Positions 29,575-63,390 of a stretch of DNA of 64,000 bases are shown here, one piece after another (the stretch's first letter is position 1; the number at the start of each line of letters is the position of its first letter). The stretch covers positions 6,600-70,599 of the forward strand of contig JBCDIT010000016.1 in assembly GCA_038748775.1 (NCBI GenBank), given 5' to 3'. This DNA is from Planctomycetota bacterium. Lineage in GTDB: Bacteria > Planctomycetota > Phycisphaerae > Phycisphaerales > UBA1924. Made by a program: the position numbers and the translations under genes. Under the pieces are notes generated by a model. That model made no database searches. It saw only the letters and a program-made list of their open reading frames with translations, and was not told where the DNA came from.

Positions 29575-29946
29575 TCACCCGCCCGATGCCTTCGCGCGGT
29601 ACCCGAACGAGGTGAGCCTGGACACGACTTCGTCGCGGTGGTCGCCCTGGAGGACGATCTCGGGGCCGGTCTCGGATTCAGAAAGGCCGCCGCCGGTTCC
29701 GAATCGTGTGCGGAGGTCTTTGAGCAGGGGCTTGAGGTCGGTCGAGCCCTCGCCGGGCGACGCGTGGATGTCCGCGATGATGGTGTTCCACTTGCCGCGA
29801 CGTTTCTCTCGCCGAACCCGGGGGCTTTGGGATTTCGGCGGGCATGCGTTGCCCTTCGCGTCTTTGGGGCACGCGCACGATTCGTTGTTGCAGTGCTCGC
29901 ATGTGACCGGGCGTTCGAGCGAGGTGCCGGCGAAGAGGCCTGACAT
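29575..29946 (-). CDS. SUI1/YciH-type translation initiation factor-like protein
   Basis: RREKRRGKWNTIIADI...LKDLRTRFGTGGG...EIVLQGDHRDEVVSRL matches the SUI1 domain. Cys-rich N-terminal extension. The start overlaps the upstream stop. Confidence 0.8.
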   Translation of the reverse strand: MSGLFAGTSLERPVTCEHCNNESCACPKDAKGNACPPKSQSPRVRREKRRGKWNTIIADIHASPGEGSTDLKPLLKDLRTRFGTGGGLSESETGPEIVLQGDHRDEVVSRLTSFGYRAKASGG

Positions 29947-30332
29947 CAGAACATCCCGTTGTCGTGCATCGACTCATTGGGGATCGTCTGGAGCACGTCC
30001 CAGTGCTCGATGATCTTCCCGTTGTCGTCGAACCTGAAGATGTCGATTCCGGCGTAGTCCTGGTCTCCGGGCCACGTCTGATAGCAATGAAGGACGACGA
30101 GGTCGCCCTCGCAGACGGCCCGCTTGAACTCGACGCGCTTGCCCGGGTACTCGGTGGCCATGCGTTCGAAGTAGGCGATGAACGGCTCGATCCCGTCGCC
30201 TACGAGCGGGTTGTGCTGGATGTATCGATCACCGACGAACTTCTCGGCGCCTTCGCGGGGTTTGCACTGGTTGAAGATCATGTCGTAGAACGCGATGGCG
30301 CGGTCTTTGAGTTCGTCGGGCGCGTGGGGCAT
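29946..30332 (-). CDS. SnoaL-like / NTF2-fold protein
   Basis: 128 aa. AFYDMIFNQCKPREGAEKFVGDRYIQHNP is typical of the SnoaL-like polyketide-cyclase fold. Confidence 0.7.
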   Translation of the reverse strand: MPHAPDELKDRAIAFYDMIFNQCKPREGAEKFVGDRYIQHNPLVGDGIEPFIAYFERMATEYPGKRVEFKRAVCEGDLVVLHCYQTWPGDQDYAGIDIFRFDDNGKIIEHWDVLQTIPNESMHDNGMF

Positions 30333-30386
30333 GGAGGGCCTCCTGTCGCGCAGACTGTATCGCGGCGATCGAACCCCGTCGCCAAC

Positions 30387-31100
30387 TCAGCGGCGCCGAC
30401 GCGCCGCGAGCGTCCCGAGGCATCCCATCAGTGTGACGGTCGCAGGCGTCGGCACAACGGTGAGGGTGGCGTCGAGGAACGCGACTTCTCCGAAGGTGGC
30501 ATCCGATGTCGCGGTCATGACCGTGAAGGAGTAGTCGCCTGCCGAGAGCGTGCCCATCCCGCTGAATGGGTCGGCGGCGCCGGCGACGGTGGGGGTGGCC
30601 TCGAAGACGACGGTGTCGGAGCTATCGGTGAGCCTGACAAACCAGTCGCCGCCGGTGAGATCGCCTTCGCCGGTGACGGCGAAGTCGGAGTTGCCGAGGA
30701 CGGTGAACGTCGTCGACGCGGCGGCAAAGGAGTTGCCTCCGGTGGTGAAGGCGAAGAAAGCGTCGGAGACGAGCGAGGTATCGAAGGTGAACTCACCGCC
30801 GCTGAGCGTGGCGTCGGCTTCGACCCCGGCGCTCGCGGTGTCGGCGTACGCGTTGGACAGGTTGCCACCGAACGCGAAGCGGTTGTAAGGCAAGATCTCG
30901 AAGCCACCGGAGTCTGCGAACGACCGGTTGCCCAGGTCGACTAGGTCGTACCCGTCGTAATCGAAGGCGTTGAGGCTGGTGTAGCCCTCGACCTCGAACG
31001 CGGCGGTCGTGACCTGGCCAAGCGCGACGGGGCTGAGGCCGGCGGTGGCAAGGGCGCCACCGAAAAGGAGAAGGTCTTTGGGCGCGAGGGGGGTCGGCAT
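30387..31100 (-). CDS. PEP-CTERM-anchored secreted protein
   Basis: C-terminus VVPTPATVTLMGCLGTLAARRRR. Thr/Ser/Gly-rich beta-type body. Confidence 0.7.
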   Translation of the reverse strand: MPTPLAPKDLLLFGGALATAGLSPVALGQVTTAAFEVEGYTSLNAFDYDGYDLVDLGNRSFADSGGFEILPYNRFAFGGNLSNAYADTASAGVEADATLSGGEFTFDTSLVSDAFFAFTTGGNSFAAASTTFTVLGNSDFAVTGEGDLTGGDWFVRLTDSSDTVVFEATPTVAGAADPFSGMGTLSAGDYSFTVMTATSDATFGEVAFLDATLTVVPTPATVTLMGCLGTLAARRRR

Positions 31101-31347
31101 GGCTCGGGTCTCCGGGTTGCTTCTCTTCGGCGTATTGACAGACGGGCGCGGTTCGCCCTTGGGGTGAGCGATGCCTGGACGGTCGCTTCACGGCGATTCG
31201 GGCAGCGAACCGGTCAGCCTCAGGAAGGGGCGCGGACGTACGGGCCGATCCAGGATGGGCTTGCGTTAAGCATTTAACTTCGATATCCTGTACACTACAG
31301 ACTCGGCGATTCTGCTCGAGCATTCACACCAGGTCGGAGGGGTTGCC

Positions 31348-32400
31348 ATGAGCACCAAGGGTCCCAGCTTCGCGCAACGCGCTGTTCTTTGGCTCGTCGT
31401 TATTGCGGTTGCCGCGGTGACCGGTGCGGTCGTTTGGCAGACGGGCGCGTACGCACCGCCCCCGAAGATCGCGCTCGTGGCTTCAACGGAGAGCGACTAC
31501 TGGAACGACGTCATTCTCGGGGCGCAGCACGCGGCTGCGCAGTACGACGCGGTGCTCACCGTCCACCAAGCGTCCGAGGGCGAGGGCGAGCAGACGCGCA
31601 TGCTCCGCGACCTGGCGGCCCAGAACGTCGATGGCATCGCGGTCAGCCCCCTCGATGCGAAGCGCCAGGTCACCCCGCTGAGCGAGATCGCGGCGAACAT
31701 CCCGCTGGTCACGTTCGACTCGGACAGCCCGCTCTCGGGCCGGCTCTGCTTCGTCGGCACCGACAACTACACCGCCGGCCGCCAGACCGCCCAACTCGTC
31801 CGCGAAGCGCTCCCCGAGGGCGGCACCGTCGTCATCGCGACGGGTAGCCTTGAAAAGGACAACGGACGCCTCCGTCGTCAGGGGTTGATCGATGCTCTGC
31901 TCGAGCGGTCGTTCGGCCCGGGCCGCCCGCCCGAGCCCTTGGGCGAGCCGCTCGTGGGCCCCGATTACACCGTTGTCACGACGCTTGTTGATGAAAACGA
32001 CCGCGCGCAGGCCAAGGCGAACATCGATTCAATGCTCGCGTCGGGCGAAACGCCCGACTGCATCGTCGGCCTCTATGCGTACAACGGGCCGGCCGCAGTC
32101 GACGCGTTGACCGAGGCCGGCAAACTCGACGACACCGTCGTGATCGGCTTCGACTACATCGAGGGCACACTCGAAGCGATCAAGGCGGGTCATATCTACG
32201 CGAGCATGGCCCAGGACCCGTACCACTATGGGTTCCACTCCGTCCGCATCCTGGCCGACGAAGCGCGTGGCAAGGCCCGCGCGATGCTGCCCTTGAACAC
32301 GATCATCGATATCCGGTGCTTCCCGATCCGGGCCAACAGCCTGGGTGAGTTCGAGGCGAAGCTTCAGACGAAGCGGTCGGGTGAGTGGATCCGGGACTGA
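31348..32400 (+). CDS. periplasmic-binding-protein (type I, sugar-binding-like) domain protein
   Basis: N-terminal TM, then IALVASTESDYWNDVILGAQHAA...VDGIAVSPLD and FVGTDNYTAGR, typical of the Peripla_BP_4/LacI-type fold. No ABC permease or ATPase nearby. Confidence 0.7.
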   Translation: MSTKGPSFAQRAVLWLVVIAVAAVTGAVVWQTGAYAPPPKIALVASTESDYWNDVILGAQHAAAQYDAVLTVHQASEGEGEQTRMLRDLAAQNVDGIAVSPLDAKRQVTPLSEIAANIPLVTFDSDSPLSGRLCFVGTDNYTAGRQTAQLVREALPEGGTVVIATGSLEKDNGRLRRQGLIDALLERSFGPGRPPEPLGEPLVGPDYTVVTTLVDENDRAQAKANIDSMLASGETPDCIVGLYAYNGPAAVDALTEAGKLDDTVVIGFDYIEGTLEAIKAGHIYASMAQDPYHYGFHSVRILADEARGKARAMLPLNTIIDIRCFPIRANSLGEFEAKLQTKRSGEWIRD

Positions 32401-32485
32401 CGCGGCTCACCGTTACCGCCGATTTCTCGACGATGAAAGGTCTCGGACGAGGCTCGCTGTCTGTCCGCCGCGCGATGGCGCCCGC

Positions 32486-33688
32486 TTACTGAAGTGTTCG
32501 CATCCAGTGGTCCAATGCCGCGCCTTGGGTGTCGGCGGTCGGACGGAAGAAGGCGGAATGGACGCCGTATTTCAGTCTGAGCTGTTCAAACAGGTTGAGG
32601 TTGCAAAGGCTTGGGTCCCAGGTGGCAGATCCGTATGAGGTATCCGGTGACATCGACGCCGCGCCGCCACCGGCTTCGAACCGCGACGACATCGGGTCCG
32701 GCTCAGATTCGTAGTTCGTCCATCGGCGTACGGCGCCGGGGATGACTTCGCGGTCTCGGTAGAACCCGGGAAACAACGACGCAATGAGATCATACGGGTG
32801 ACCAAAAGTCGCAAGCTCGTACGTGACATCATCGCGGAAGTGCTCGGATCGGCTGATGTACTCCGTTGCGGCGATCGCGCCCATGCTAAAGCCGAGGAGA
32901 TGGATCGGACTGCTCAGGTCGGTCGTAGGGCTCGAGTCGACGATGATGTCGATCGCCGTTCGCACGCACTTCGCGATACGCCGAGATGAACGACTGAACG
33001 GCGAGCGGAGCAGCGAGACAAGCGACACGAATTCCGACGATGCCTTTCCCGTCGCTCGGAACAACTGAGGCCACGCAAATCGCAGGATGATCCCGATCGC
33101 GCCGACGCCCGCGAATGCCGTCACCACCGGATTCTCCGCGACGTCCAGCCCTTCGAGCAGCGGAACTTGATCGAGCAACGCCACCACGCCAAAGGCGGCC
33201 GCGAGCGCGAGCAGCATCGCCAAGACGCCGCTCGCGAAGAGTATGAAGATGTACGCGATCGTCAGCGGCTTCGAGGGTCCTCGGACCAGCAAACGGGCGA
33301 TACGCCAGGTTTCCGTGAGTGGGGCGATGTTCCTGAAAAGCCCGGCGACGCCCTCGACCTTTGTGTTGCCCTCGAGGCACGCGAGCACGCTGAGTGAGTG
33401 AACCGTCGCGAACGCTTGATTCTTGCGCCGGATCGATGCCCGTTGCACGACAGTTCCGTCAGGCAGCACGAGCGAAGATCGGTCCGAGACTTCGAACGTA
33501 CCTCCCAAGACCCGCTTGCCGGCGCTCGCGATGCGATGGGCAACAGTGCTTGCTGATTGGTCGAGAATCTTCTCCGACACCATGCCCTGGATGAACAAGA
33601 TGCGCATGGGTGTCGACAAGGCGGGCGTTCTGTCCGACGGCTGGTTCATCTTGGGCGAAGCGTAACCCGGGACCGGACGTTGAGTCAC
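32486..33688 (-). CDS. membrane protein with lipase/esterase-like GxSxG site
   Basis: 400-aa ORF with central TM helices (IAYIFILFASGVLAMLLALAAAFGVVALL, FAGVGAIGIILRF) and a nucleophile elbow IHLLGFSMGAIAATEY. Lower G+C. Start uncertain. Confidence 0.5.
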   Translation of the reverse strand: MTQRPVPGYASPKMNQPSDRTPALSTPMRILFIQGMVSEKILDQSASTVAHRIASAGKRVLGGTFEVSDRSSLVLPDGTVVQRASIRRKNQAFATVHSLSVLACLEGNTKVEGVAGLFRNIAPLTETWRIARLLVRGPSKPLTIAYIFILFASGVLAMLLALAAAFGVVALLDQVPLLEGLDVAENPVVTAFAGVGAIGIILRFAWPQLFRATGKASSEFVSLVSLLRSPFSRSSRRIAKCVRTAIDIIVDSSPTTDLSSPIHLLGFSMGAIAATEYISRSEHFRDDVTYELATFGHPYDLIASLFPGFYRDREVIPGAVRRWTNYESEPDPMSSRFEAGGGAASMSPDTSYGSATWDPSLCNLNLFEQLRLKYGVHSAFFRPTADTQGAALDHWMRTLQ

Positions 33689-33778
33689 CGAACCTCGAAT
33701 TCAAAGGCAATCGACGAGACGATTCGTTGTGCGTGCATCGACCTCGCTGACGTCCAGGACGCGAAGGGGCTTGGCGGG

Positions 33779-33883
33779 GTCCGAAGGGCAAGCCTTGCGG
33801 ACCGTTGCGGGACGCCTGCCCAAACCGAATCTGGAGTGATCGTCGCCTTGGCCGGCAGGTTCTGCAAGCCAGATCCAGGCATC
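33779..33883. repeat. degenerate copy of the ~125-nt palindromic repeat unit
   Basis: TCCGAAGGGCAAGCCTTGCGGACCGTTGCGGGACGCCTGCCC...TCTGCAAGCCAGATCC aligns by eye with the unit at 36147-36269. Confidence 0.45.
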
Positions 33884-34116
33884 TTCGGTCGGCGATTTGA
33901 AATCGCGGTCTTGCCGTGGTCTCGGCCGACGCGCACCTCAGGAGTTCTTCGTTGTATCACCTCAGATGTCCGGTTTGTCGCTCAACTCGGGTCCGCCCTA
34001 CTTTCTGCGGTTGCACCCGAGTTTGTGCTGGTATCCCACCCATGACTCGATACCGTGGAACCTTGGGTGGCTCTGAGTTCACGCCGCCCGATTCGAAGTC
34101 GCTGGGGAGCGAATAG

Positions 34117-34824
34117 ATGAAGAAGCTTTCTCTTGGTGTCGTCGCGATGGCGGCGTCCGTGCTGTCGGCGGCGCCGACGACGTTCTTTGGTTTGGATGCC
34201 GGGGTCAATCCAACAGATCCGCGGCCGCGCTCCGATGCCGCGCGTGATCGTTTCCTGAACGCGGCCGGGTCCGTTTCCACGCTGACCTACGACGGTCTGA
34301 GCACGACGGCGAATGACACGTCTGCGAAGAACGTCGGGCTCGGAGTGCTGATGTCGGTCTCCGGCGATATGCGGAGCGGCATCCGCTCGACGCCCGGGTC
34401 GGCCTCGAACGGTTTCCGGACTTCGGGTGCGAACCGTTTCTTCCTGAGCGATACTAATGGAGCGATGGGCGGGGCGCCGGTGCTCACGATCGATTTCGCG
34501 GCGCCGGTCGATTCGTTCGGCAGCTACTTCACCGGGCTCAGCACCGCCGGCGGCAACACCCTGACGCTGACGTACTCCGATGGCGGGGTCGAACAACTTT
34601 CGTTGTCTGGCGCGCTGACCGGCGGGTCGCTCTACTTCGGGTTTGTCGACGCTGGCCGGAGCATCTCGCAGCTGCGCATCTCGTCGGCCAACGCGGGCGA
34701 CAGTTTCTCTCTCGACGACACGTCATTCCGCCTCACGTCGGCCCCCATCCCGCTGCCGACCGCATCGGCGATGGGGCTCGTGGGTCTCTCGCTCGTCGGG
34801 TTCGGTCGCCGTCGTTCAACTTGA
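34117..34824 (+). CDS. PEP-CTERM-anchored secreted protein
   Basis: Signal peptide MKKLSLGVVAMAASVLSA and C-terminus APIPLPTASAMGLVGLSLVGFGRRRST. Confidence 0.7.
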   Translation: MKKLSLGVVAMAASVLSAAPTTFFGLDAGVNPTDPRPRSDAARDRFLNAAGSVSTLTYDGLSTTANDTSAKNVGLGVLMSVSGDMRSGIRSTPGSASNGFRTSGANRFFLSDTNGAMGGAPVLTIDFAAPVDSFGSYFTGLSTAGGNTLTLTYSDGGVEQLSLSGALTGGSLYFGFVDAGRSISQLRISSANAGDSFSLDDTSFRLTSAPIPLPTASAMGLVGLSLVGFGRRRST

Positions 34825-34923
34825 TCGCGTGCGGCCGCGAGGTCCAAGGTGTGCATCCGAGACTCGTGCGCTGACGGCGCCAACCGACACCGGTCGACGA
34901 CACGGCCGTGAGGGGTGAGACGC

Positions 34924-35051
34924 GGGTGCCACGGGTCGACCCGAAGGACAACCCGTGAGGTCCCTCGTGGCACGTGTGTCCGACCGGTGTTTCTGGGGTG
35001 GTCGCCGTCTCGGACGGCACGGTTTGCCCTTCGGGTCAAACCGTGGCACCC
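34924..35051. repeat. 128-nt palindromic (REP/BIME-like) unit
   Basis: Bounded by GGGTGCCACGG (34924-34934) and CCGTGGCACCC (35041-35051). Internal hairpin CACGGTTTG...CAAACCGTG. It ends exactly at the RAYT stop codon. Confidence 0.75.
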
Positions 35052-35648
35052 TCAGTCGGAGACCTCGCGTGACGGTGGTGGGGGAGACGACCGGTGGTCG
35101 ATGTCGGGCCACAACGTGTCCATGCGCTTCCACGCCCTCGCGGACGACCACGGCCAGTCGGTCGAAACTTCGACCAATCCTCGGCGCACTGGGTTGTCGT
35201 GGATGTACCCGATCTTCTCGACCAGCTCGTCCTCGCTGAAGATGTTCCGGTCGTACCCACCGCCCGCCTGCCAGAACCGGTCCCCGGTCGCAAGGCCCCG
35301 CTCGCGACCAAGCCTTCGGACGCTCGTCGCGACGGGCCGCTTGATCGCGCTCAAGATCCGCGCCACGTCCGCCCCCTCGGGCAGATCGGGCATCACGAGC
35401 AGGTGCACGTGCTCGGGCATCACCACCCACGCGAAGAGTCGGAACCCGAGCCGTGTGCGGGTCCACGCGAGTTGATCGGCGAACACGGTGCGTCCGTGCT
35501 CGTCGAGCGTCGGTTCACGCCGGTACGTCGAGAACGTCAGAAACCGAGCATGCCCCGGGATCTCGTACCGACGGAGTGTCTTGCGGATCGACACGCAAAG
35601 AGCGAACCACGATCCAAGCCCAATGTCAACGACGCGGCCAAGTTCCAC
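35052..35648 (-). CDS. REP-associated tyrosine transposase (IS200/IS605-type Y1 family)
   Basis: HUH motif VVMPEHVHLLV and catalytic-Tyr motif IGYIHDNPVRRGLV, with flanking REP-like hairpins. Possibly starts at a downstream codon. Confidence 0.8.
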   Translation of the reverse strand: MELGRVVDIGLGSWFALCVSIRKTLRRYEIPGHARFLTFSTYRREPTLDEHGRTVFADQLAWTRTRLGFRLFAWVVMPEHVHLLVMPDLPEGADVARILSAIKRPVATSVRRLGRERGLATGDRFWQAGGGYDRNIFSEDELVEKIGYIHDNPVRRGLVEVSTDWPWSSARAWKRMDTLWPDIDHRSSPPPPSREVSD

Positions 35649-35691
35649 ATGTCTGTGTCCCCACCCGGCCGAAGCGAGGATCCCCGCCCAA

Positions 35692-36311
35692 GGGTGCCAC
35701 GGCTTGACCCGAAGGGCAAGCCGTGCGGTCCGTCGCGGGACGCGTGTCCGAACGGTGTTTCTGGGATAGTCGCCGCCTCGGACGGCACGGTCTGCAAGTC
35801 AGACCGTGGCACCCTTGGTTCGGTGTCTGCGGCGACGATCAAGCAGTGGCACCCGGCTGCCGCCTCGAACGGCACGGTCTGCAAGTCAGACCGTGGCACC
35901 CTTGGCTTGACGACGGCGGTGACGGCCAAGCAGTGGCACCTGGCGGGATGCGTGTCCGACCGGTGTTTCTGGGGTGGTTGCCGCTTCGGACGGCACGGTC
36001 TGTAAGTCAGACCGTGGCACCCTTGGTTTCGGGGTCTGTGGTGACGGTCAACCAGTGGCACCCGGCACCCTTGGTTCGGCGTCTGTGGTGACGGCCAAGC
36101 AGTGGCACCCGGCCATCACCCAACCGAAGCGAGGGCCTCCATCAAAGGGTGCCACTGCTTGACCCGAAGGGCAAGCCGTGCGGTCCGTTGCGGGACGCGT
36201 GCCCGAGCGGTGTTTCTGGGGTGGTCGCCGCCCTGGACGGCACGGTCTGCAAGTCAGACCGTGGCACCCTTGGTTCGGCGTCTGTGGTGACGGCCAAGCA
36301 GTGGCACCCGG
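35692..36311. repeat. array of REP/BIME-like repeats (two unit types)
   Basis: Full ~123-nt units at 35692-35814 and 36147-36269, and 3' partial units at ~35858-35901 and 35950-36022. Five ~40-nt units ending CAGTGGCACC(C/T)GG lie at ~35815-35856, 35902-35943, 36023-36065, 36066-36112 and 36270-36311. Recurrent hairpin CACGGTCTG-CAAGT-CAGACCGTG. Confidence 0.8.
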
Positions 36312-36412
36312 CACCACCGGTAGCGCGTCGCGTGTGAACGCCAGTTTGTTCGGGATTCGAGGGGAATCGTCTTGGCGGTCATGGATTCGGGGCCGCGATG
36401 CCGATATGCTGA

Positions 36413-37168
36413 ATGCTATCGAGCAAAAAACTGGGCAGGAGATCGCCATTGCTTGACCAGATCATCGACCCGTTCGCATTCAGGTCCATCTCACGCTGGG
36501 GCATTCGGACCGGATTTGGAACCGCGTTGTTGGACTCATGTGAGTTGGCAGCGAGTTGCTTGGAAGAGATGAAGACCGGGCGGGTGGGTAGTCGGACAGC
36601 ACGCAATCGATTGCAGGAAGTGTCGTCCGACACATTGGCTGACTTCGTCCTCTCTGATGATCTAGCCAACCCTTGGGTCCCCAGGCCCTTGGCCGGGGGA
36701 GGGCACGAGTTCGTGATGCCAGGCGTTTGCGTGGTCCGACTCAAGGCAATCCACTCGGAAACCCATGCAGTGAGCGGCGCGAACGTTCATACGGGGCTGG
36801 GATTCCGTTTCGCCCAGCACACAGGTCCGACGTGGAATCAGCAACTTCCGCTCTTCGAGGGGCCTGTGACGCGAGCGATGCTCAGCGGGTGGCGAAAGAG
36901 CCGTGTTACAGAGTTCGCCGATCTCTGCGTACTTACGCTCGGCATGGATATGCGGCCGGATGCGGAGGACGGATGGCGAGGCTGCGTGTTTGAGAACGTG
37001 ATCGTTGCGTACAGAGCGCCCGTGAACCAGACGATTTGGTCATTCTCGGCGCGTGAGTTGCTCGGTCGGACGGTTGCGCAGGTCGAAGATGAGTTGGATC
37101 TGACCCAGCCGGCAACCGTCCGTGTGTTGGATGACGCGGCGGAGCTTCGTCGCAAGTACGGCGCCTAA
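36413..37168 (+). CDS. hypothetical protein (no recognisable family)
   Basis: 251-aa ATG-initiated ORF, 40 nt upstream of the XRE-ImmA gene on the same strand. Visibly lower G+C than core genes. Confidence 0.5.
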   Translation: MLSSKKLGRRSPLLDQIIDPFAFRSISRWGIRTGFGTALLDSCELAASCLEEMKTGRVGSRTARNRLQEVSSDTLADFVLSDDLANPWVPRPLAGGGHEFVMPGVCVVRLKAIHSETHAVSGANVHTGLGFRFAQHTGPTWNQQLPLFEGPVTRAMLSGWRKSRVTEFADLCVLTLGMDMRPDAEDGWRGCVFENVIVAYRAPVNQTIWSFSARELLGRTVAQVEDELDLTQPATVRVLDDAAELRRKYGA

Positions 37169-37208
37169 GGCCGATCCGCGTTCATCGCGCGTAGAGGGGA
37201 ACTGAGCG

Positions 37209-38285
37209 ATGATTAACAGTGAGTGGTTTGTAGTTGCGCGCCAAGCCAGCGGCATGTCGCAATCCGCGGTTGCGAAGACGACAGGAATTTCTTCCGCACG
37301 GTTATCGCGGATAGAAAACGGACTGCTCATTCCTGCAGTCCACGAGATTGATGCGATCGCCGCAGCGCTCGGAGTTCGTCGAGAGTTGTTTTCTGACTCG
37401 TCGACGATCCGTGGGCCTGGGACGTCAGTCGTCCACCATCGCGCGCTTCGTCGGGCCCGACGTCGCGATGTCGAGCGCGTGCATGCGAGAATGGCGCTTT
37501 TTGATTTGCAGTTGAGACGACTGCTTCGGCATGTTGAGCCGGAACACGACGGCGAGTTGATACCCGATCTGTCGATTGCAACGTTCGACGATGATGGGGC
37601 CGAGATTGCCCGCGAAGCGAGGTCGATCTTGCGGTTACCACCCGGACCCGTAAAAACTCCAAGTCGTGTCATTGAACGAAGCGGTGGAATAGTCGTTGAA
37701 GCCCGGTTCTTGACGGACGCTGTGAGCGCCATCTATCGCCTTACGCCAGAGCTTCCCCCGATGTTCTTTATCAACTATGTACACCCTGGCGATCGAACTC
37801 GCTTTAGCCTTGCCCATGAATTGGGGCATGCAGTAATGCACCGTCACATTGGAGCTGATGATGATCGGGTCGAACAACAGGCGGATGCATTTGCTGGCGA
37901 GTTTCTTGTTCCCAGAGACTGGTTGGTCGATCGTGTCCGTTCCGCGGTTACGGTCTCGCTGCTGTGTGATCTCAAGCAGGAAACTGGATTTTCGATTGCG
38001 ATGCTCGCGCGGCAGACAGCCAACGCTGGATTGATCAGCCCGCGACGTTTTCAGAACATCATGATCGAGTTGTCGAAGCGAGGGTGGCGAACCAGAGAAC
38101 CAATCGACGTTCCTCGTGAAACTCCGGAGTTGTTTAGAGGCATGGTCGGGTCACTGCGGCACGACCTCGGTTACCAGCAGGCCGAGATTGAGCACGTATT
38201 GCTCCGCGACGATCGCGCACGACAAGACGACGAGTTCCTGGTTGCGATTTCGGACGATGACGGTCCTCGATTGCGACTCGTTTAA
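37209..38285 (+). CDS. XRE-family HTH fused to ImmA/IrrE (M78, COG2856) zinc metallopeptidase
   Basis: N-terminal HTH ([29 protein letters not shown]) and HEXXH in [13 protein letters not shown], followed by a ~130-aa C-terminal region. Confidence 0.8.
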
Positions 38286-38520
38286 CCCATGTGCTTCACA
38301 ATCGCCGCCCCGAACTCCGAGCATTTCAGAAGCGTCGCACCCTCCATCAATCGCTCGAAGTCGTAGGTCACCGTCTTCGCCGTGATCACCCCCTCGATCC
38401 CCTTCACAATCAGGTCCGCGGCCTCCTGTCAGCCTATGTGCTCGAGCACCAAGACACCCGAGAGGATGACCGAGCCAGGGTGCACCTTGTCCTGGCCAAC
38501 GCACTTAGGGGACGTGCCGC
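38282..38520 (-). pseudogene. duplicated 3'-terminal fragment of isocitrate dehydrogenase gene (icd')
   Basis: Aligns by eye with 39555-39793 (roughly 85 % nt identity). It translates to [77 protein letters not shown], with TGG>TGA at 38429-38431. Homology stops at the stop codon. Confidence 0.8.
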
Positions 38521-38601
38521 CGGCGGGCGTGCGCGCTGTTCCTCAACGACAACGGCCCGAGCCTGGGCCCGGGCCGCGTCGGTGGCGTTTGAGTTGTGCG
38601 A

Positions 38602-39384
38602 TCAGCGGCGGCGGCGGGCGGCGGTGAGGCCGGCGAGGGCGAGGGCGGTGGCTCCGCTGGGGGGCGGGACGGTGGCGAAGAACTCGAATCCCTGGTGGAA
38701 GCCGATGTTGGCGTATCCGGCGGGGACGGAGCCGTCGCCGGTGAAGGGGACGAAGACCTCGACGGGGCTTCCGGCGTTGACGGCGGCGACCTGGACTTCC
38801 ACGCCGCTGAAGCCGGGGCTGGGCAGGAAGGCGTTGAACTCGAGGGCGAGGCCGGTGCGGATGGAGAAGGCGATGTCGGCGGACGAGACGGTGATGATGA
38901 AGCCGTCGGCCTGGCCGCCGCGGGTGTAGTCGACGCTCTGTCCGTGGCCGCGGCGTTCGAGGGTGCCGACCTGGGTGTCGTTGCCCCCTGGCGCCGATGA
39001 CGTGGCTATCTCCTGCCAGGACATGGCGGCTCGGAAGATGTCGGCGTCGTTTCGCGACGTGATACGGAAGGTGCCGTCGTTGACTTCGACGGACTGGTCG
39101 ACGGGGGCGCCGGTGAAGGCGTTGGTGGCGTTGTTGACAAAGAAGGAACCAACGAGGCGGTGGCCACCGAACTCGGCGGGGCCGGCGAGCGTCGTGGTGG
39201 CGGCGACCGAGGTGGCTGGCTGGACCGGTGCCATTTCGGTGAAGACGTTGCCGGCGGAGAAGTCGTCGATGAGATCGAGCTTCGTGCCGTTTGAATTGCC
39301 GAAGTGGATCGACTGGATTTCGATCGTCGCGGCGTGTGCGGGCGCAACGATCGCCAGGACGGACATGACAACTGCTCGGTGCAT
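38602..39384 (-). CDS. PEP-CTERM-anchored secreted protein
   Basis: ATG at 39384 (MHRAVVMSVLAIVAPAHA) and C-terminus VPPPSGATALALAGLTAARRRR. Confidence 0.7.
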   Translation of the reverse strand: MHRAVVMSVLAIVAPAHAATIEIQSIHFGNSNGTKLDLIDDFSAGNVFTEMAPVQPATSVAATTTLAGPAEFGGHRLVGSFFVNNATNAFTGAPVDQSVEVNDGTFRITSRNDADIFRAAMSWQEIATSSAPGGNDTQVGTLERRGHGQSVDYTRGGQADGFIITVSSADIAFSIRTGLALEFNAFLPSPGFSGVEVQVAAVNAGSPVEVFVPFTGDGSVPAGYANIGFHQGFEFFATVPPPSGATALALAGLTAARRRR

Positions 39385-39555
39385 GGGTCTCTCTCCTTGG
39401 TCTGTGCTCTCTCTGCGACTCTCTTCGTCCGCCTTGGGAGGCAGACTGTGCGGCGAATATAGCAACCCCCGTTCCGGGATGCAGGGGTATCCCGAGACGG
39501 GGGTTGCTGTTGACGGGTGGATCCGTGTTGGCTGGTTGGCGCGGTCGGGCTGTGA

Positions 39556-40788
39556 TCAGCCCATGTGCTTCACAATCGCCGCCCCAAACTCCGAGCACTT
39601 CAAGAGCGTTGCTCCCTCCATCAACCGCTCGAAGTCGTAGGTCACCGTCTTGGCGGTGATCGCACCCTCGATGCCCTTGACGATCAGGTCCGCGGCTTCT
39701 TGCCAGCCCATGTGTTCGAGCATGAGGACTCCCGAGAGGATGACGGAGCCGGGGTTGACCTTGTCCTGGCCGGCGTACTTGGGGGCCGTGCCGTGGGTGG
39801 CTTCGAAGATCGCGTGCCCGGTGTCGTAGTTGATGTTGGCTCCGGGTGCGATGCCGATGCCTCCGACGCAGGCGGCCAGCGCATCCGAGATGTAGTCGCC
39901 ATTGAGGTTCATGGTCGCGATGACCGAGTACTCCGCGGGGCGGGTGAGGATCTGCTGGAGGAAGGCGTCGGCGATGACGTCCTTGATGACGATGTCCTTG
40001 CCGGTCTTCGGGTTCTTGAGCGTGTGCCAGGGGCCTCCGTCGAGCGGGGTGGCGCCGAAGTGCTCGGCGCTGACCTCGTAGCCCCATTGCATGAAGGCAC
40101 CCTCGGTGAACTTCATGATGTTGCCCTTGTGCACCAGCGTGACCGAGGGCTTGTCGTGGTCGATGGCGTATTGGATGGCGGCGCGGACGATGCGCTCGGT
40201 GCCTTCCTGTGACACCGGCTTGATGCCGATGCCGGCGGTCTCGGGGAAGCGGACCTTCTTGAAGCGGTCGGGGAAGGCCTCGGCCAGCATCGCCTTGAAC
40301 TTCTTGTTGTCGTCCGTCCCCTGCTCGAACTCGATGCCGGCGTAGATGTCTTCGGAGTTCTCACGGAAGATGACCATGTCGGTCTTCTCCGGGTGCACGA
40401 CCGGGCTGGGCACGCCCTTGAAGTAGCGGACGGGGCGGAGGCAGGTGTACAGGTCGAGGATCTGACGCAACGCGACGTTCAGCGAGCGGATGCCTCCGCC
40501 GGTGGGGGTGGTCAGCGGGCCTTTGATGCCGACGAGGTACTTCTTGAAGTCGTCGAGCGTCGCCTGGGGCAGCCAGTCGCCGGTCGCGTTGTGCGATTTC
40601 TCGCCGGCCGCGACTTCGTGCCAGTGGATCTTCTTGGCGCCGCCGTAGGCCTTCTCGACCGCGGCGTCGAAGACCATGACCGAGGCGTTCCAGATGTCGG
40701 GCCCGGTGCCGTCGCCCTCGATGAAGGGGATGATGGGGTCGTTGGGGACCTGGAGGCCGGCGTCGGTCATGGTGATGGGGCTTGGCAT
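39556..40788 (-). CDS. icd: NADP-dependent isocitrate dehydrogenase
   Basis: Full-length 410-aa match to the prokaryotic IDH pattern ([39 protein letters not shown]). Confidence 0.95.
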
Positions 40789-42558: not shown

Positions 42559-45500
42559 TCAGCGCGTCGCGGTCGGCGCAAAGAGTGACTTTCCGGCGGT
42601 GCTCGTCCGGAGCGCAAACAGCGTGAACGCGCCGACGATGACCGCCGGCGTGAGGGCCGACGGGGCCCACCATTGGTCGTAGGGCGCTAAGTCGACGAAG
42701 TAGCTGAGCAGGGTCATCGAGGTGATCGTCGCGGCGGCCGCGAGCAGACCGACGCGGTCGAGCACGACGAGGACGAGCGTGACGCCGGCGAGCATCGCGA
42801 TGCGGTCGAGCGGGCCTTGGTTGGGTGCGACGAGCGACTGGGCGGCGACGAGCACCACGACGATCGCGATCGCCGGCCAGCGGCGTTTGACCTTGAGCAG
42901 CCCGAGCAGCACCATCACGATGAGGACGACGAACGCGAGGGCCGCCGCGTTGATGAGTCCGACCGCGACCTGGGCGAGGCTCAGGCCCAGCATGTCTCGC
43001 ATCCCGGTAAGCCCGCTCATCGTCCCGTTCATCGTTGGGAGACCGGTGTCGGCGCCGATCGAGGGCGCGAGGATCGGAGCGAAGAACTGGGCGAGAGACG
43101 CCGCCAGCCGGACGGCGACGCCGGCCGCGATCCCGAGGAGCAGGTCGCGGCCGATCATCGGGTCGGTGTACGCCCCTCCGAACAGACGCGTCCACGAGAC
43201 CAGCGACCCGGGCCAGCGCGATCTCGCGAGCGGCTCGACCGCGATGTAGCACGCGATGAGCACGAGCGCGAAGCCGAGCCCATAGGCATAGAGCGGGAAC
43301 GGACCGACGAACGCCTCGAACGTGATGATCGAAACATCGGCGCCCAACGCCGCGGAGAGTGTTGTAAACCCGAAGACGGTGAGGCCCAGCGTTGTCGCAC
43401 GCCGGAGGTCGCACCGCCCGAGGCGATAGTTGCGATAGGCCATGACGCCGGCGACAACGGTGATGATGAGGAAGACCAGCAGCCTCGCGATGCCGGCGAT
43501 GTACTGGACGACGACCGAGTCGGCGTTGATGCGGGCCGGGGGCGGCGCGTCGGGGGCGTTGGGCGACTCGAGGTGCCTCGGGGGTGTTTCGCCGAAGAAA
43601 TCTTGGCCCGGGGCTTTGGTTTCGGGTTCCTCGGGTTGTGTGCTCGCCTCAGTCGGGCTGCTTTCACCCGGTTGCGTTGCGCCGTCCGATGGGGCTCCGC
43701 CGTCTGCCTCGGGTCGGGCTTGGATTCTCGCCTCGGGTGCAGGGTCGGCACGCCATATCGAGAACTCAACGATGCGGCCATCGGCGGCCCCGGCGAACAC
43801 CTCGATCTCGTGCTCGGGCAGGACCGCTTCCGGGTCGGGCCAGACGCCTCGCCAGCCGCGGCGAACGTCGGCGTCCGCCCCGTCGCGGCGGATGGTCTCG
43901 GTCGGCTCGAAGAGCGAGACGTCGAGCCCCGCTGCCTCGAACGCGATCGACCAGTCGGGCTCTTGGGTCGATGGGATCCGGTCGTCGCCCCTGACCTCGG
44001 TCTGCGGGATGACTTTCAGAGATTGCAGGCGACGCTGCCCGTCGAGCATTATCTGGACCGCGCCCGGACCGACCGGGGCCGGGTCGGTCTGGTCGACGAC
44101 GTAGGCGGGGTTGATCGGGCTGAACCCGTCGGGCTCAAGGCGCAGCCAGAAGAGCAACGGGTCAGCGGTGGGCTCGGAGAGCGCATCCCACGAGTCGAGG
44201 TCTTCGGTCGAGATCGCGGTCGCGACACGGGCAAGCGTGTTGCCCGAGTAGTTCCACCCGGTGCGGATCGGGGCGTCGTCGGGCACGCTATGCCCGAGCG
44301 ATTCGAGCACTTCGAGCGCCGTTTCTTCCATCAACACCGGCGCCGAGGGCGCGGACGCGGTGGTGAGCAGCGTCGTCCCGTTGCCCAGCAGGACAGAGAG
44401 CGCCGTGAAGACGATGATTGCGCCGGTCAACGCCATCGCGATGGCTGGCTTCAGCGCGCCCTTGCCGCCCGAGGCGGCGATGAGTTCCGGGCTGGGTGTT
44501 TCGCCCGCCGCGATCGCGGCCGCGACGGGGTCGGCGCCGGGCAAGGCCGCGGCGACCGCCAGGGCGGACGCGGGGCGGTCAGCGGGGTCGGTCTCGGTGC
44601 ACCGTTCGACGAGCGCAGCGAGCGCCGGGTCGATGCCTCGGGTGCTGATCGAACTCAGTCCCACCGGGGTCGCGGTCGCTTCCCGCAGGGTCCTGAGCTC
44701 TGCGTAGCTCTTGGCGTCCCAGGCGGGCTTGCCGGTGAGGGTCTCGAAGATGACGAGCCCGAGGGCGTAGATGTCCGACGCCTTGCTGACGGCCCGCCCT
44801 TCGAACTGTTCGGGCGCCATGTAGGCGGGCGTGCCGGCGTTGGCCTCGGCGCCCGTCGTCACGTCACCGAACGCTCCGTCGCCGAATGCCCCTTCGCCGA
44901 ACGCGCCTTCATCGATGGCCGCGATCCCGAAGTCGGTGAGTCGGACGTTGCCCCGCCCGTCGAGCATGACGTTGGCCGGCTTCAGGTCGCGGTGGATCAC
45001 GCCCTGATCGTGAGCCGCGGCGAGCGCGGCGCAGAGCTGGCGAGCGACGTCGATCGCCTTGTCTTGGGGCAGCTTGCCGATGCGCCGGAGCAACGTCTGC
45101 AGGTCTTCCCCGTCGACGTACTCCATCGAGATGAACAGGTCGCCCCCCTGGTCGTCGGGGAGGCGGGCGATGTCGTGGATACGGCAGACGTTCTTGTGCG
45201 AGATACCCCGGGCCATTCGAACCTCGGCCCGGACACGCTCGGTCAGGTTGGCGTCGGCGGCGACGTGGCTGGGCAGCAGCTTGATCGCCACCGACTGGGC
45301 GAGCTCGAGGTCATCGGCCCGGTAGACCTCGCCCATACCGCCTCGACCCAGGAAGGCGACGACGCGGTAGCGTCCGGCGAGGGTGTCGCCTGGGTTGAAG
45401 CGTTGCGTCCGGATTAGGGATGGATCGCCAGCGGTGGCGCTGGCTTGGGTGGTGCGGGCGGGGCCCGGCGCGGGGTTGGGCGTCGAACCCGGGTTCTCGG

Positions 45501-45573
45501 GTGGCGTAGTACCTTCCCCGGGGATCGGCGTGGGGTCTTGGGTTTCGTCGATTTCTCGGGGCACCGGACTCAT
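42559..45573 (-). CDS. Ser/Thr protein kinase with large polytopic C-terminal membrane domain
   Basis: Hanks kinase motifs (GRGGMGEVY, AIK, HRDLKPANV, DFG, APE) and about 10 predicted helices in the C-terminal half. 1004 aa. Confidence 0.85.
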   Translation of the reverse strand: MSPVPREIDETQDPTPIPGEGTTPPENPGSTPNPAPGPARTTQASATAGDPSLIRTQRFNPGDTLAGRYRVVAFLGRGGMGEVYRADDLELAQSVAIKLLPSHVAADANLTERVRAEVRMARGISHKNVCRIHDIARLPDDQGGDLFISMEYVDGEDLQTLLRRIGKLPQDKAIDVARQLCAALAAAHDQGVIHRDLKPANVMLDGRGNVRLTDFGIAAIDEGAFGEGAFGDGAFGDVTTGAEANAGTPAYMAPEQFEGRAVSKASDIYALGLVIFETLTGKPAWDAKSYAELRTLREATATPVGLSSISTRGIDPALAALVERCTETDPADRPASALAVAAALPGADPVAAAIAAGETPSPELIAASGGKGALKPAIAMALTGAIIVFTALSVLLGNGTTLLTTASAPSAPVLMEETALEVLESLGHSVPDDAPIRTGWNYSGNTLARVATAISTEDLDSWDALSEPTADPLLFWLRLEPDGFSPINPAYVVDQTDPAPVGPGAVQIMLDGQRRLQSLKVIPQTEVRGDDRIPSTQEPDWSIAFEAAGLDVSLFEPTETIRRDGADADVRRGWRGVWPDPEAVLPEHEIEVFAGAADGRIVEFSIWRADPAPEARIQARPEADGGAPSDGATQPGESSPTEASTQPEEPETKAPGQDFFGETPPRHLESPNAPDAPPPARINADSVVVQYIAGIARLLVFLIITVVAGVMAYRNYRLGRCDLRRATTLGLTVFGFTTLSAALGADVSIITFEAFVGPFPLYAYGLGFALVLIACYIAVEPLARSRWPGSLVSWTRLFGGAYTDPMIGRDLLLGIAAGVAVRLAASLAQFFAPILAPSIGADTGLPTMNGTMSGLTGMRDMLGLSLAQVAVGLINAAALAFVVLIVMVLLGLLKVKRRWPAIAIVVVLVAAQSLVAPNQGPLDRIAMLAGVTLVLVVLDRVGLLAAAATITSMTLLSYFVDLAPYDQWWAPSALTPAVIVGAFTLFALRTSTAGKSLFAPTATR

Positions 45574-45800
45574 GCTACCTCACGATGAATCTCTGGCTTT
45601 GGTCGATCTCGGGTCGACGTCGACGTGCCCGCGGACGCGCCATTCAGCGGCGCACCTTTCTCTGGGCCGTCAGCTAGGAGGACAGACCAATTTACTGTTT
45701 CTATGAGGAAATCTGCTGTCGTTGGAGCCTTGGGTGGCGCGCTTTGCGGTCATCACTCGCGTCAGTCCTGGTCCGTTGCGGCGCGTGATAGGAGCAATCG

Positions 45801-48232: not shown

Positions 48233-48370
48233 CGGCTGGCTTGAAGCCGTGCATCTGGTCGGCCCGAGGAGCTACGCTGTGGTGCTGGTACGCCCAGGAT
48301 CTTGGTTCATCTGCTGTCAGGGACCTCGCAAGGTGCTTTGTTCCTCGGAGGCTTGGCGTCTCCTCTGCCC

Positions 48371-51300
48371 ATGTCCGACCTTCCCACGAAACTCGCCCAG
48401 TACGTCGTCGAGCGAGAGCTCGGCCGTGGTGGCATGGGGGTGGTCTATCTCGCTTGCGACCCCAAGCTCGACCGCCCCGTCGCGATCAAGGTCTTGCCCG
48501 ATTCGATGACCGAGCACCCCGATCGGCTGGCTCGGTTTAGCCGCGAGGCGAAGATCGTCGCGCAGCTCAACCACCCCAACATCGCCGGCGTGTATGCGCT
48601 CCACGAGCACCTGGGTCGCCAGATGCTCGTGATGGAGTATGTCGAGGGCGTGAACCTCGACGAAAGGCTGAGCGCCGGCATGGCGCTGACGGTTCAGGAG
48701 GCGATTCAGATCTGCGTGCAGACAGCCGCGGGGCTCGAAGCGGCCCACACCCACGGCGTGATCCACCGCGACCTCAAGCCCGGGAACATCCGTATCCGCA
48801 AGGACGGGATGGTTAAGGTGCTGGACTTCGGGCTCGCCAAACCCGAGGCCGATGCACACGGGGCCGGTGCCGACAGCGACGACACGATGAGCCTGGCGGC
48901 GACCGAAGCGGGGCGGGTGCTGGGCACCGCCGGCTATATGAGCCCCGAGCAAGCACGCGGCAAGCCCGTCGACAAGCGGACCGATGTCTGGGCCTTTGGA
49001 TGTGTGTTGTACGAGTGTCTCACAAGCACGCGTGCGTTCGGGGGTGACACGGCGATGGACGCGATGGTCGCCGTGCTCGAGAAGCAGCCGGCGTGGGAAC
49101 GCTTGCCAGAGCAGTTGCCCGACAGCCTCGCCGATCTGCTGAGGCGTTGCCTCGAGAAAGACGCCGACCGACGGGCACGCGACATCGGTGACGTTCGCCT
49201 GCAGCTCGAGGACGCCCTTGCGTCGTGGGGCACCGCCGGGTCGGTTGCCTACGGGGGGTGGCGGTCGCGCAGCGGTACCGGGTCGACGACCGGATCTGCG
49301 ACGGGGTCTGCGACCGGAGCGACGGCCGGTCGTTCGTCGAACGCGTCACCCGGCGCGTCGTCATCGGCATCTTCGCAAGGCGGACCGGGTCGGCCGGTCT
49401 TCAATGTCGGGAGTGGCGGCTCTGGCTCGGGCGTCGCAGGTCTCGCGACGCCGACGAACCTCAAGGCGCAGCTCACCAAGTTCATCGGTCGCGGCGCGAT
49501 CTTGAGCGACCTCAGCTCGCTCATCGAAGAGCAGCGGCTGCTCACGCTCACCGGCGCCGCCGGGTGCGGGAAGACAAGGCTCGCGATCGAAGCCGCGGCG
49601 AGGCGAGCGTCCGAGCACCGGGGCGGCGTGTGGATCGTCGAGCTCGGCGCCCTCGATCCTGCGTCGGCGAACGCGGACCGGGTGGCGGTTGAGATCGCGA
49701 CGGTCTTGGGCGTGCCGATCGCCGATGGAGCGTCACCGGCCGACCAGCTGATCGTTGCCCTCGCGGGTCGCGAGGCCTTGCTGATTATGGACAACTGCGA
49801 GCACGTGCTCGAGCCGGTCGACGAGATCGTCGCGAGGCTGCTCAGCGTGTGCCCGGGGGTACGCGTGCTGGCAACGGCGCGAGAGGCCCTGGGGCTTCCG
49901 GGTGAGACGGTCCTCAGCGTGCCCCCGATGGACGTGCCCCCGCCCGATGGTGCGTCGGATCCGGAGCTGCTCGAGGCCAACGAGTCGGTGCAGTTGTTCC
50001 TCGATCGCGCCCGCGCTGTGCGACCGAGGTTCTGTCTGACACCGAGCAACATCGGCGCCGTGGTCCGCGTGTGCCGGGAACTCGACGGGATCCCGCTCGC
50101 GATCGAACTCGCCGCGGCCCGGGTGAAGCTGTTGAGCGTTGAACAGATCGCCGAGCGTCTGGGTCAGCGGTTCAAGCTTCTCCGGGGCGGTGGCAAGCAG
50201 ACGCCGACGCGGCAGCAGACGCTTCACGCGGCGATCGCGTGGAGCTACGACAATCTCGAACCGTCCGAGCAAGCGGCGATGCGCCGCCTCAGCGTGTTCG
50301 GCTCGGGCTTCACGCTCGGGGCCGCGGAGGCGGTCAGCTCGGGCGAGTATGCCGAGCACGCCACCCCGGGCGATCTGAACGAAGACTCGGTCCTCGAAGA
50401 GTGGGAGGTGATCGATCTCGTCGGCCAACTGCTCGACAAGAGCCTGCTCATCGTCGACGAGGGGATCGATGACACGCGACCGTCCGACGAGCCGCGGTAC
50501 CGCATGCTCGAGACGATACGTCAGTTTGGCTTGCTTCAGCTCGAGTCCGGAGGCGAGTCTGAAGAAGCGCAGAACCGCCTCCTGGCATGGATGGCCGGCG
50601 TCGCCGCCGAAGCCGGCGAAGGTCTCGTCGGCCCGGACCAATCAACGTGGTTCGACCGGCTCGATCGGGAGCAAGCGTCGATCAGGGCGGCGCTCGGGTG
50701 GGTGCTTTCGGGCAAAGGCGATCTTGAGCGTGGTCGTCAGCTCGCCGCCGGCGTGTGGCGTTTCTGGGCGTACCGGGGGTACATGGGCGAGGGACGCTCT
50801 CTGCTCACCCGGCTCGACGCGGCCGGCGCCGGGGGTGAACCGACCGCCGCGTGGGCGCGGCTGCGTGAGGGGATCAGTTGGACCGCGATGCTCATCGGTG
50901 ATCTCGGGTCGGCGATCGCGTTCGGGCGGTCAGGGCTCGAGATGGCGCGCGCTTCGGGTGATGAGTTGGCAGTATCGAATCTCCTGAACTGTCTCGGAGC
51001 CGCGTGTCTCGGTGAGGGGTTGGCCGATCAAGCGGCCGACTACTTCGAGCAGTCGTTGATGATCCGCAAGCGGTTCAACAAGTTGACACTCGCCGCGGCG
51101 TGCCTGAACAACTTGGGCGAGTGCCGCCGCCAGTCACGCGCGTTCGCCGAGGCGCGCGAGCTGTACCGTGAGGCCGCGCTGGCGTTGGGCGGATCGACTG
51201 ATGTCTTGCTCCGCGCGACGATCTCGCAGAACCTCGGTTGGCTCGCGCTCGCCGAGGATGATCCGGCGATCGCCGGTGAGCATGCCGAGGCGGCGCTCGA

Positions 51301-54269: not shown

Positions 54270-54536
54270 CTCTCTGTTCCCGTCTTGTCAACGCCGAAGG
54301 GCGTCCGTCTCTCTTGTCCCGTCAACGGTATCGATCAGCCCGATCGATCGCGACAGGAAAACATAGCAGCGGCGGGTGATTCCTCTAGGTTTAGATCAGA
54401 GAGAACATGAGGAATGCGCGCAAAGACAACATGAGAGGCGACCGGCACCGCCAATATCGGGTAGATACGACGCGCAGGGCTCGCGGACCGTTGAAGAAAG
54501 CGAGCGACGACCCCTCGGCCGTCGCCGCGATGTCCG

Positions 54537-55136: not shown

Positions 55137-55263
55137 CTCTCGTTCCCTTCACCAGGGTGTCCGGGCGAGGCTCTCACCACGCCGCTTCCGTGCTCTCGCG
55201 GTGACAGTGCACCGCTGATCGGAACCTACACGCGCACCCGGGGGCGACCACAAACTTCAGTAT

Positions 55264-63275: not shown

Positions 63276-63390
63276 CGTGAGTCTCCCTTTTCTTCCACAG
63301 CATCGAAGCCGAAAGTGTTCGGAAGGCGCACCGATGGCCCTCGCCGACGGTGGGAGTCGATTCTGACCCAGTGTCCCGGGGCCGGTTCAG

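Follow-up and report, generated by a model that had tools for sequence, protein, structure and literature searches.

The window analysed here is a 64,000-nt stretch (GC content ~ 65%) of a Planctomycetota genome (GenBank assembly GCA_038748775.1, contig JBCDIT010000016.1, positions 6,600 to 70,599), and all coordinates given below without a locus label refer to it. The window carries an intact icd gene, coding for NADP-dependent isocitrate dehydrogenase (IDH), and behind it, on the same strand, a second and orphaned copy of the icd 3' end, with a single gene between the two copies. The icd protein scored above the cut-offs of both PRK07006 (717 bits) and TIGR00183 (680 bits) in NCBIfam and was 100% identical to a protein (P0121) from an NCBI Planctomycetota metagenome-assembled genome (MAG). 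The closest non-identical icd proteins were 88–91% identical, and the host order is Phycisphaerales, the best icd matches being Phycisphaerales and Planctomycetota MAGs. The features that make up the duplication are the following:

39556–40788, minus strand: intact icd, NADP-dependent isocitrate dehydrogenase, 410 aa (Pfam Iso_dh, E = 5e−93)
39556–39800, minus strand: icd nt ~ 989–1233, the resident copy of the repeated 3' end, which is in frame and working (repeat search and codon alignment)
39385–39555, minus strand: spacer after the working icd stop, which holds the ribosome-binding region of the gene between the repeats
38602–39384, minus strand: the single gene between the repeats (cargo gene), coding for a 260-aa secreted orphan protein with a PEP-CTERM-like tail
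38527–38601, minus strand: junction from the end of the cargo gene to the start of the orphan copy, with a GC hairpin at 38554–38569
38282–38526, minus strand: orphaned icd 3' fragment (pseudogene), 5' part missing, in-frame TGA at 38429–38431

The repeat search returned one family of two direct copies at 38286–38526 and 39560–39800 (241 nt, 85% identity, spacing 1274; blastn inside the window, E = 1.5e−77), the orphan tail lying 1274 nt downstream of the working tail on the same strand. Weak homology extends to 38526/39800 at one end, and at the other it stops at the stop codons (TGA at 39556–39558 in the working copy, TAA at 38282–38284 in the orphan). In the minus-strand codon alignment, the 34 nucleotide differences over 79 codons comprised 24 synonymous changes, 7 amino-acid replacements, and the nonsense change TGG>TGA at 38429–38431. 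A preliminary description of this locus, made from the sequence alone, had already reported a same-strand copy ending at the stop codon, with about 34 nucleotide and 8 codon-level differences including the TGG>TGA change; all of this stands, apart from its interval for the resident copy (39555–39793), which is off by 1 (actually 39556–39794). The Nei-Gojobori method gave proportions of synonymous and non-synonymous differences of pS = 0.43 and pN = 0.046–0.06 and a dN/dS (ratio of non-synonymous to synonymous rates) of 0.07–0.10, non-synonymous changes thus being far from as frequent as synonymous ones. These values indicate, as had been argued from the raw counts, that the two tails diverged under purifying selection while both were functional, and therefore that the pair is not a decaying local duplication. 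The arrangement is also not an assembly artefact of one data set, since an independent assembly (Logan contig L001, SRR22824304) carries it with 100% identity over 36283–39763. A third icd remnant was not found in the window, where masked blastn (word size 7) and tblastn (E ≤ 5) gave only chance-level matches.

At the start of the repeat, the first ~ 25 nt of homology are ~ 70% identical and all identical blocks are ≤ 6 nt. The longest identical blocks (26 nt each) lie inside the repeat, at icd nt 1138–1163 and nt 1204–1229, so that any crossover would have had homology on both sides. We read the orphan tail as a recombination scar and not as a working device, and with a nonsense codon and seven unique replacements it has started to decay.

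The cargo gene is host-like in composition, with a GC content at third codon positions (GC3) of 0.88 (icd body, 0.94), and its product has a signal peptide and the C-terminal tail ...VPPPSGATALALAGLTAARRRR, in which VPPPS, a hydrophobic stretch, and RRRR resemble a PEP-CTERM signal by eye. The preliminary description was right in placing a single gene between the copies, while its PEP-CTERM label amounts to a mere resemblance, because the protein matched no PEP-CTERM hidden Markov model (HMM; PF07589/TIGR02595) at E ≤ 10 and the tail alone matched just VPDSG-CTERM (E = 0.43). The protein had no Pfam, PHROG, or NCBIfam match and no homologue besides itself among 5.8 billion proteins. In the spacer behind the working icd, a GC hairpin with a 10-bp stem could be read from the sequence at 39462–39507; a simple terminator scan returned just the inner 5-bp stem on the plus strand (39490–39502), and the count for this region was not above the shuffled expectation.

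Two further features adjoin the orphan copy on its left side:

37209–38285, plus strand: fusion regulator of XRE-HTH and M78 (ImmA/IrrE-type) domains (Pfam HTH_3 and Peptidase_M78), hereafter XRE-ImmA
36413–37168, plus strand: unknown 251-aa gene upstream of XRE-ImmA, GC3 0.69

The regulator, a single polypeptide with a full-length match to phrog_2439 (E = 4e−62), is of a type known from phages and mobile elements, and its stop codon (38283–38285, plus strand) overlaps that of the orphan copy, the two being convergent. Its GC3 of 0.57 is the lowest among 11 genes measured around icd, and the gene at 36413–37168 probably belongs to the same foreign block. By composition, the foreign-looking DNA would thus be that to the left of the orphan copy and not that between the repeats, a distribution that fits the earlier proposal of successive events with the XRE-ImmA side being the older one. 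The regulator also had a sub-threshold match to the spr1629 repressor/antitoxin family, and the gene at 36413–37168 may be its partner. Viral contigs scanned with XRE-ImmA gave no match. As the preliminary description had stated, an integrase is absent: the 59 composition-supported open reading frames (ORFs) scanned over 1–57100 yielded no Phage_integrase, Arm-DNA-bind, or recombinase domain, the sole exception among recombinase-like genes being a REP-associated tyrosine transposase (RAYT) at 35052–35798, which represents a different kind of element. PHROG structural or replication genes were not matched at the locus, and no tRNA or tmRNA genes were found in the window.

Orphan tails were searched for in other genomes by comparing each fetched locus with its own icd tail, after inspection of short IDH “proteins” on long contigs, and the loci of relatives were seen as 10-kb flanks. 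Three more Phycisphaerales genomes have orphan tails behind an intact icd, with 0.5–2.5 kb of cargo in between, and are arranged as follows:

L082 (Phycisphaera sp. GCA_003712165.1): icd, dockerin-type gene, 44-nt icd piece, YHS gene, orphan from nt 1016
L164 (Phycisphaerales JB054): icd, 100-aa ORF, orphan from nt 1089, nSTAND NTPase
L170 (ENA ERZ926297): icd, two genes, orphan from nt 1149, one gene, orphan from nt 1143, GmrSD

The left breakpoints within icd vary (~ 992 in the window, 1016 in L082, 1089 in L164, 1143/1149 in L170), and about a dozen other Phycisphaerales loci were without a duplicate. No integrases were found among the called genes of the L082, L164, and L170 loci, and no phage or conjugation genes among the cargo of these three and the window. 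Working and orphan tails differed with a dN/dS of 0.14 in L082 and 0.06 in L164. The earlier suggestion that icd is, or was, an attachment site here is partly upheld, insofar as orphan tails recur in Phycisphaerales, and is not upheld with respect to a defined site used by an integrase. In L082, the isolated 44-nt piece (9374–9417; icd nt 949–992, 84% identity) lies between the two cargo genes, ~ 600 nt upstream of the main orphan tail, and probably remains from an intermediate orphan copy that an earlier insertion had left. The orphan regions of L170 (11634–11841 and 13448–13651) share an arm outside icd, and their adjacent genes share a C-terminal segment; the arm was absent from the window and from all other loci searched.

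Outside Phycisphaerales, duplicates were of two kinds, namely the enterobacterial type known from the prophage e14, in which the fragments begin at MLRHMGW and adjoin lambda-type integrases, and one integrase-less case. The latter (L215, metagenome contig Ga0306907_1000247, GC 0.45, not Phycisphaerales) has the same anatomy as the window: at 10234–14051, icd is followed by a gene for a 1059-aa TonB-type outer-membrane barrel and an orphan tail (aa 366–410, 93% identity), with no integrase between icd and the orphan tail. In the enterobacterial provirus L129 from IMG/VR (1–4076), the icd end is followed by an integrase-less 2.4-kb module (a Mom-like ORF and one other) and an orphan tail (aa 359–409), beyond which a lambda-type integrase and the prophage follow; this is tandem accretion at icd in Enterobacteria. 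IMG/VR viral contigs scanned with the icd tail yielded no Phycisphaerales-like tail, the best matches having a GC content of 0.38–0.51 and being mostly enterobacterial. Icd tails next to integrases, for which the preliminary description had proposed a search in related genomes, were met in enterobacterial proviruses and not in a Phycisphaerales-like form. Two candidates were discarded: apparent fragment starts at codon 344–350 (tblastn) were actually ordinary e14-type fragments from codon ~ 354, and P0002/L083, at first taken as an isolated icd fragment, comes from a frameshift-ridden long-read assembly.

Which of two tails is the native one can be read most clearly in L082. There, the orphan carries the clade-typical C-terminus ...TLRKCSEFGDDIVKWMG (as in P0133, P0135, P0138, P0143, and P0144), whereas the working gene has a C-terminus as in another clade. 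The intact icd tail of L163, a relative of L082, is 93.9% identical (nucleotides) to the orphan and 85.9% to the working tail, and at informative sites it sides with the orphan 22 times and with the working tail 5 times. These comparisons show that the orphan of L082 is the native tail and its working tail an import, as in e14; the layout of one working and one displaced tail, which had been proposed for the window by analogy with e14, is seen directly in this relative. For the window, comparison with five relatives gave agreement with the working copy at 18–23 sites and with the orphan at 1–6 sites over nt 995–1137, and a split (2–3 for the working copy, 3–5 for the orphan) over nt 1138–1233. 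The seven replacements and the nonsense codon are all unique to the orphan and all located in nt 995–1127, and the last 35 codons of the two tails differ by 10 synonymous and 0 non-synonymous changes (P about 0.01–0.016 for this clustering, with no replacement in the last 106 nt). The pattern, whose up/down contrast has the same sign with all five relatives, suggests that the window orphan may be a hybrid, with a crossover close to nt 1138–1163, where 26 nt in a row are identical, although nt 991–1142 are the more conserved part of icd anyway. A single common crossover at icd nt ~ 1143 in all four genomes was also considered, because the first mismatch of L082 and L164 falls at 1143, the L170 orphans start at 1143/1149, and the window has an identical block at 1138–1163; it was rejected, since nt 991–1142 are simply more conserved and the statistics are weak. 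Either tail of the window may be the immigrant, and the order of events there is inferred. Within icd itself, L082 (6865–8097) and L163 (8001–9230) are mosaic in identity (some 90-nt bins 80–91%, others 97–100%), which suggests repeated recombination tracts inside icd between lineages.

The scar lies within a larger interval:

29947–39555, no strand: variable interval from icd to the conserved SUI1 gene (29575–29946), containing the scar

From the orphan leftwards, this interval holds XRE-ImmA, the gene at 36413–37168, a cluster of RAYT and REP-like units, and a weak PEP-CTERM protein (34117–34824), and farther left, in order, a 400-aa gene of unknown function, a periplasmic binding protein, and SnoaL, beyond which SUI1 follows. 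A SUI1 gene is found downstream of icd in the window, L082, L251, and L252 (DinB also recurs in L252), at distances of 2.4 kb in L252, ~ 5 kb in L082, ~ 9 kb in L251, and 9.6 kb in the window, and the intervening genes are unrelated. L164 and L166 have 95% identical icd and 97% identical OsmC genes (nucleotides), yet different genes between them (an nSTAND NTPase in L164, a helicase and DUF7002 in L166), and other genomes have GmrSD, AIPR, or a restriction-modification (R-M) methylase at the same position. With unrelated content and varied icd-SUI1 distances, the interval downstream of icd is therefore a variable island hotspot in Phycisphaerales. Depending on the genome, the interval between icd and SUI1/OsmC/DinB also holds secreted proteins of dockerin/EF-hand or PEP-CTERM-like type.

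We favour, with middling confidence, homology-anchored recombination at this icd-flanked hotspot as the origin of the scar, a pathway that we infer from the anatomy of the loci. Phycisphaerales genomes would swap small accessory DNA blocks in the icd-SUI1 interval, and a foreign tract carrying the last ~ 240 icd nt of another lineage beside its cargo would have been attached to the resident gene at its 3' end. One tail would have been kept in frame, and so icd would never have been lost, while the other would have been severed from the gene body and left to decay. The joining would have been done by the general recombination of the host, with the highly conserved icd tail as homology arm, either by a Campbell-type single crossover of a circularised fragment or with one homologous and one illegitimate end, and not by the integrase of a lambdoid-type element residing here. 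In the most economical history, an older event would have set the low-GC XRE-ImmA block directly against an icd tail, and a later one would have placed the present working tail and the secreted-protein gene ahead of that block. Features expected of such insertions are present, namely a variable end of the truncated copy, the lack of any integrase found, and homology flanking the crossover. A resident or decayed lambdoid element is disfavoured because the four loci have no integrases, small cargo without phage genes, and four left breakpoints, and because the window has no identity core at the boundary.

Insertion-duplication by single crossover and homology-facilitated illegitimate recombination are known from transformation genetics, as laboratory observations in Acinetobacter and Streptococcus. 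The likeness is close: a 3' gene fragment integrates and leaves one complete gene and one 5'-truncated copy without any recombinase gene, and the breakpoint of the truncated copy varies because it is set by where the fragment happened to end. We know of no account in which either process acts repeatedly in nature to build up an island beside icd. The locus also resembles hotspots flanked by core genes, as the genes found from icd to SUI1/OsmC are unrelated from one genome to the next and in many cases defence-like (GmrSD, nSTAND NTPase, AIPR, R-M methylase, helicase with DUF7002); it differs from them in that the usual models assume clean replacement between homologous flanks, whereas here partial duplicates of a flanking gene are left.

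Several observations weigh against homology-anchored recombination. The polarity of L164 is opposite to that of L082, the tail of its relative L166 being 95.0% identical to the working tail of L164 and 88.7% to the L164 orphan, and the direction of replacement is therefore not uniform. The contrast that suggests a hybrid orphan in the window is post hoc, with Fisher P = 0.0015 for L165 and no significance for L164 and L082. The left boundary of the orphan coincides exactly with a perfect identity block in L082 (28 nt) and in L164 (54 nt), which is what a site-specific core would produce. The starts of the two L170 orphans lie no more than 6 nt apart in icd, and upstream of them both carry a ~ 120-nt arm that does not belong to icd (87% identity over 207 nt, with 71 nt at 98.6%), which looks like a conserved element end (att arm, for attachment site) or else like a tandem duplication. 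An integrase may possibly have acted in trans from beyond the 10-kb flanks. The donor arrangement (icd followed by the cargo gene) was not found, the cargo protein matching only itself. The empty site, which the preliminary description had proposed to look for in related genomes, was not identified among the available ones either, since the closest had 91% amino-acid identity in icd; genome contigs scanned with icd gave no relative closer than 85% and no synteny, and metagenome contigs, among the matches listed, mostly non-Phycisphaerales icd genes.

A possible explanation, which we hold to be clearly less probable, is site-specific integration as in e14, in which a tyrosine-integrase element, or an integrase-less one mobilised in trans, would have used an att core in icd and brought a replacement tail, the 1.27-kb module being then the whole mini-element or an integrase-deleted remnant. 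In its treatment of e14, PMC13626634 (with Hill et al. 1989 cited there) describes an imported tail in use in E. coli icd and a native tail that is displaced (icdC). Among known systems, e14 and phage 21 come closest to the window, and the architecture of the window matches theirs in that the icd 3' end is the target and a working tail is accompanied by a same-strand pseudogene with mostly synonymous differences; as in e14, incoming DNA would have brought an alternative 3' end without harm to the enzyme, and the pseudogene would be the tail that was displaced. The imported working tail of L082, the boundary identity blocks of L082 and L164, and the repeated arms and near-coincident breakpoints of L170 can all be read in this way, and so can the enterobacterial proviruses of IMG/VR with icd tails next to lambda-type integrases, the module of L129 between icd and an integrase-bearing prophage, and an XRE-M78 regulator typical of phages and integrative and conjugative elements (ICEs). 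The differences are nevertheless considerable. e14 spans 15 kb and encodes both an integrase and an excisionase of its own, whereas the window unit has 1.27 kb, one gene, and no integrase in 57 kb, and no integrase was found at the four Phycisphaerales loci. The e14 crossover is fixed at MLRHMGW (codon ~ 354, last ~ 165 nt) and enterobacterial icd fragments begin at codon 354–355, whereas the window repeat covers 241 nt from codon ~ 331, its homology beginning at nt ~ 992; the left breakpoints of the relatives differ from it and from one another, and the phylum is Planctomycetota. A lambdoid att core would leave an identity block, and the window boundary, with no block > 6 nt, therefore speaks against this explanation, as do the 0.5–2.5 kb of cargo without phage or conjugation genes and the viral contigs without a Phycisphaerales-like icd tail.

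Mobilisation in trans has a known precedent in the cis-mobilizable elements (CIMEs) of streptococci, which are integrase-less, att-flanked elements that accrete in tandem next to ICEs. Like these, the modules at icd are small, bounded by repeats of a target-gene end, and devoid of their own recombinase, and they are stacked in tandem in L170, L082, and possibly the window. CIMEs, in contrast, have defined att sites and a cognate integrase in the neighbouring ICE, and neither a cognate integrase nor a conserved core was seen in the 64 kb of the window and the 10-kb flanks of the relatives, apart from the arm that the two L170 orphans share.

A further version of homology-anchored recombination, which we put forward only tentatively and regard as rather doubtful, is that the modules are integrase-free, self-restoring cassettes with the icd tail as a portable homology arm, mobile by means of the RecA of the host. 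By recombination between the flanking direct repeats, RecA would release the unit as a circle and, after transfer, insert it again into any related icd, which would remain active, and successive insertions would build up an island of accessory, defence, and surface-protein genes downstream of icd in Phycisphaerales. Given that L215 (GC 0.45) has the same anatomy, such cassettes may reach beyond this order.

It is also conceivable, though distinctly unlikely, that the orphan was never part of the icd of this genome and represents the end of a donor tract (donor tail, XRE-ImmA, and neighbours) that was inserted downstream of the native icd and secreted-protein pair, in which case nothing would have been displaced and the working tail would be native. 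Relatives do side with the working copy at most informative sites, and the orphan is about twice as far from them (identity 0.79–0.82, as compared with 0.86–0.91 for the working tail). XRE-ImmA is compositionally foreign and lies stop-to-stop with the orphan, the cargo gene is host-like, and L164 has the same polarity. A passenger decaying uniformly would not be expected to have all its replacements in the upstream 60% and none in the last 35 codons, true replacement of the tail occurs in the clade (L082), and the native status of the cargo gene is unsupported, because no relative has a homologue of it. Finally, the icd end might have been duplicated locally in tandem, after which one copy would have decayed neutrally and a gene would later have been inserted between the two. 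Such a history would account for close, direct, same-strand repeats and for the shared arms and C-terminal gene segments of the L170 modules, and is nonetheless extremely improbable and already effectively refuted by dN/dS, since the 24 synonymous against 7–8 non-synonymous changes (dN/dS about 0.1) and a pS between the copies as large as that between the icd genes of different genera (0.43, as compared with 0.29–0.41) exclude it, and the tails of L082 belong to different clades.

Duplication of the icd tail is a textbook signature of lambdoid elements in E. coli, and the same signature recurs here in Planctomycetota with cargo of 0.5–2.5 kb and no integrase found. This suggests that the end of a conserved core gene can nucleate an island hotspot by gene-preserving, homology-anchored capture. 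The scar itself is of modest interest, and would be of more if the recurrent integrase-free modules proved to be a general means by which islands form next to conserved genes. If confirmed, homology-anchored capture would offer a simple, recombinase-independent route by which genes for defence and surface proteins gather beside core genes, and successive acquisitions could be dated by the orphaned gene tails that they left. For annotation, it would call for some caution, as a working icd tail may be xenologous, as in L082, and short orphan fragments get called small “hypothetical” or “partial IDH” genes.

Some further features of the window and its relatives were recorded. The RAYT ORF (35052–35798, minus strand) scored 97 bits against NCBIfam NF047646 (cut-off 80), matched Pfam Y1_Tnp, and lies inside a cluster (33781–36343) of REP-like units (GGGTGCCACGG.TTGACCCGAAGGGCAAGCCGTGCGGTCC), palindromes of ~ 40 nt that occur both directly and inverted; L011 has a RAYT of 48% identity ~ 8 kb downstream of its icd gene. 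The side of icd away from the scar encodes two very large Ser/Thr protein kinases at 42559–45579 and 48245–51604, the second with NB-ARC/AAA and TPR domains, and both are conserved in L252 and L253. They are followed by two tandem HpiC1-like cyclase paralogues adjoining a LysR regulator (53673–55148) and, at 61264–63999 on the minus strand, by a run of four similar ORFs with the internal repeat families D5, D6, and D8 and a GC content of 0.58–0.61.

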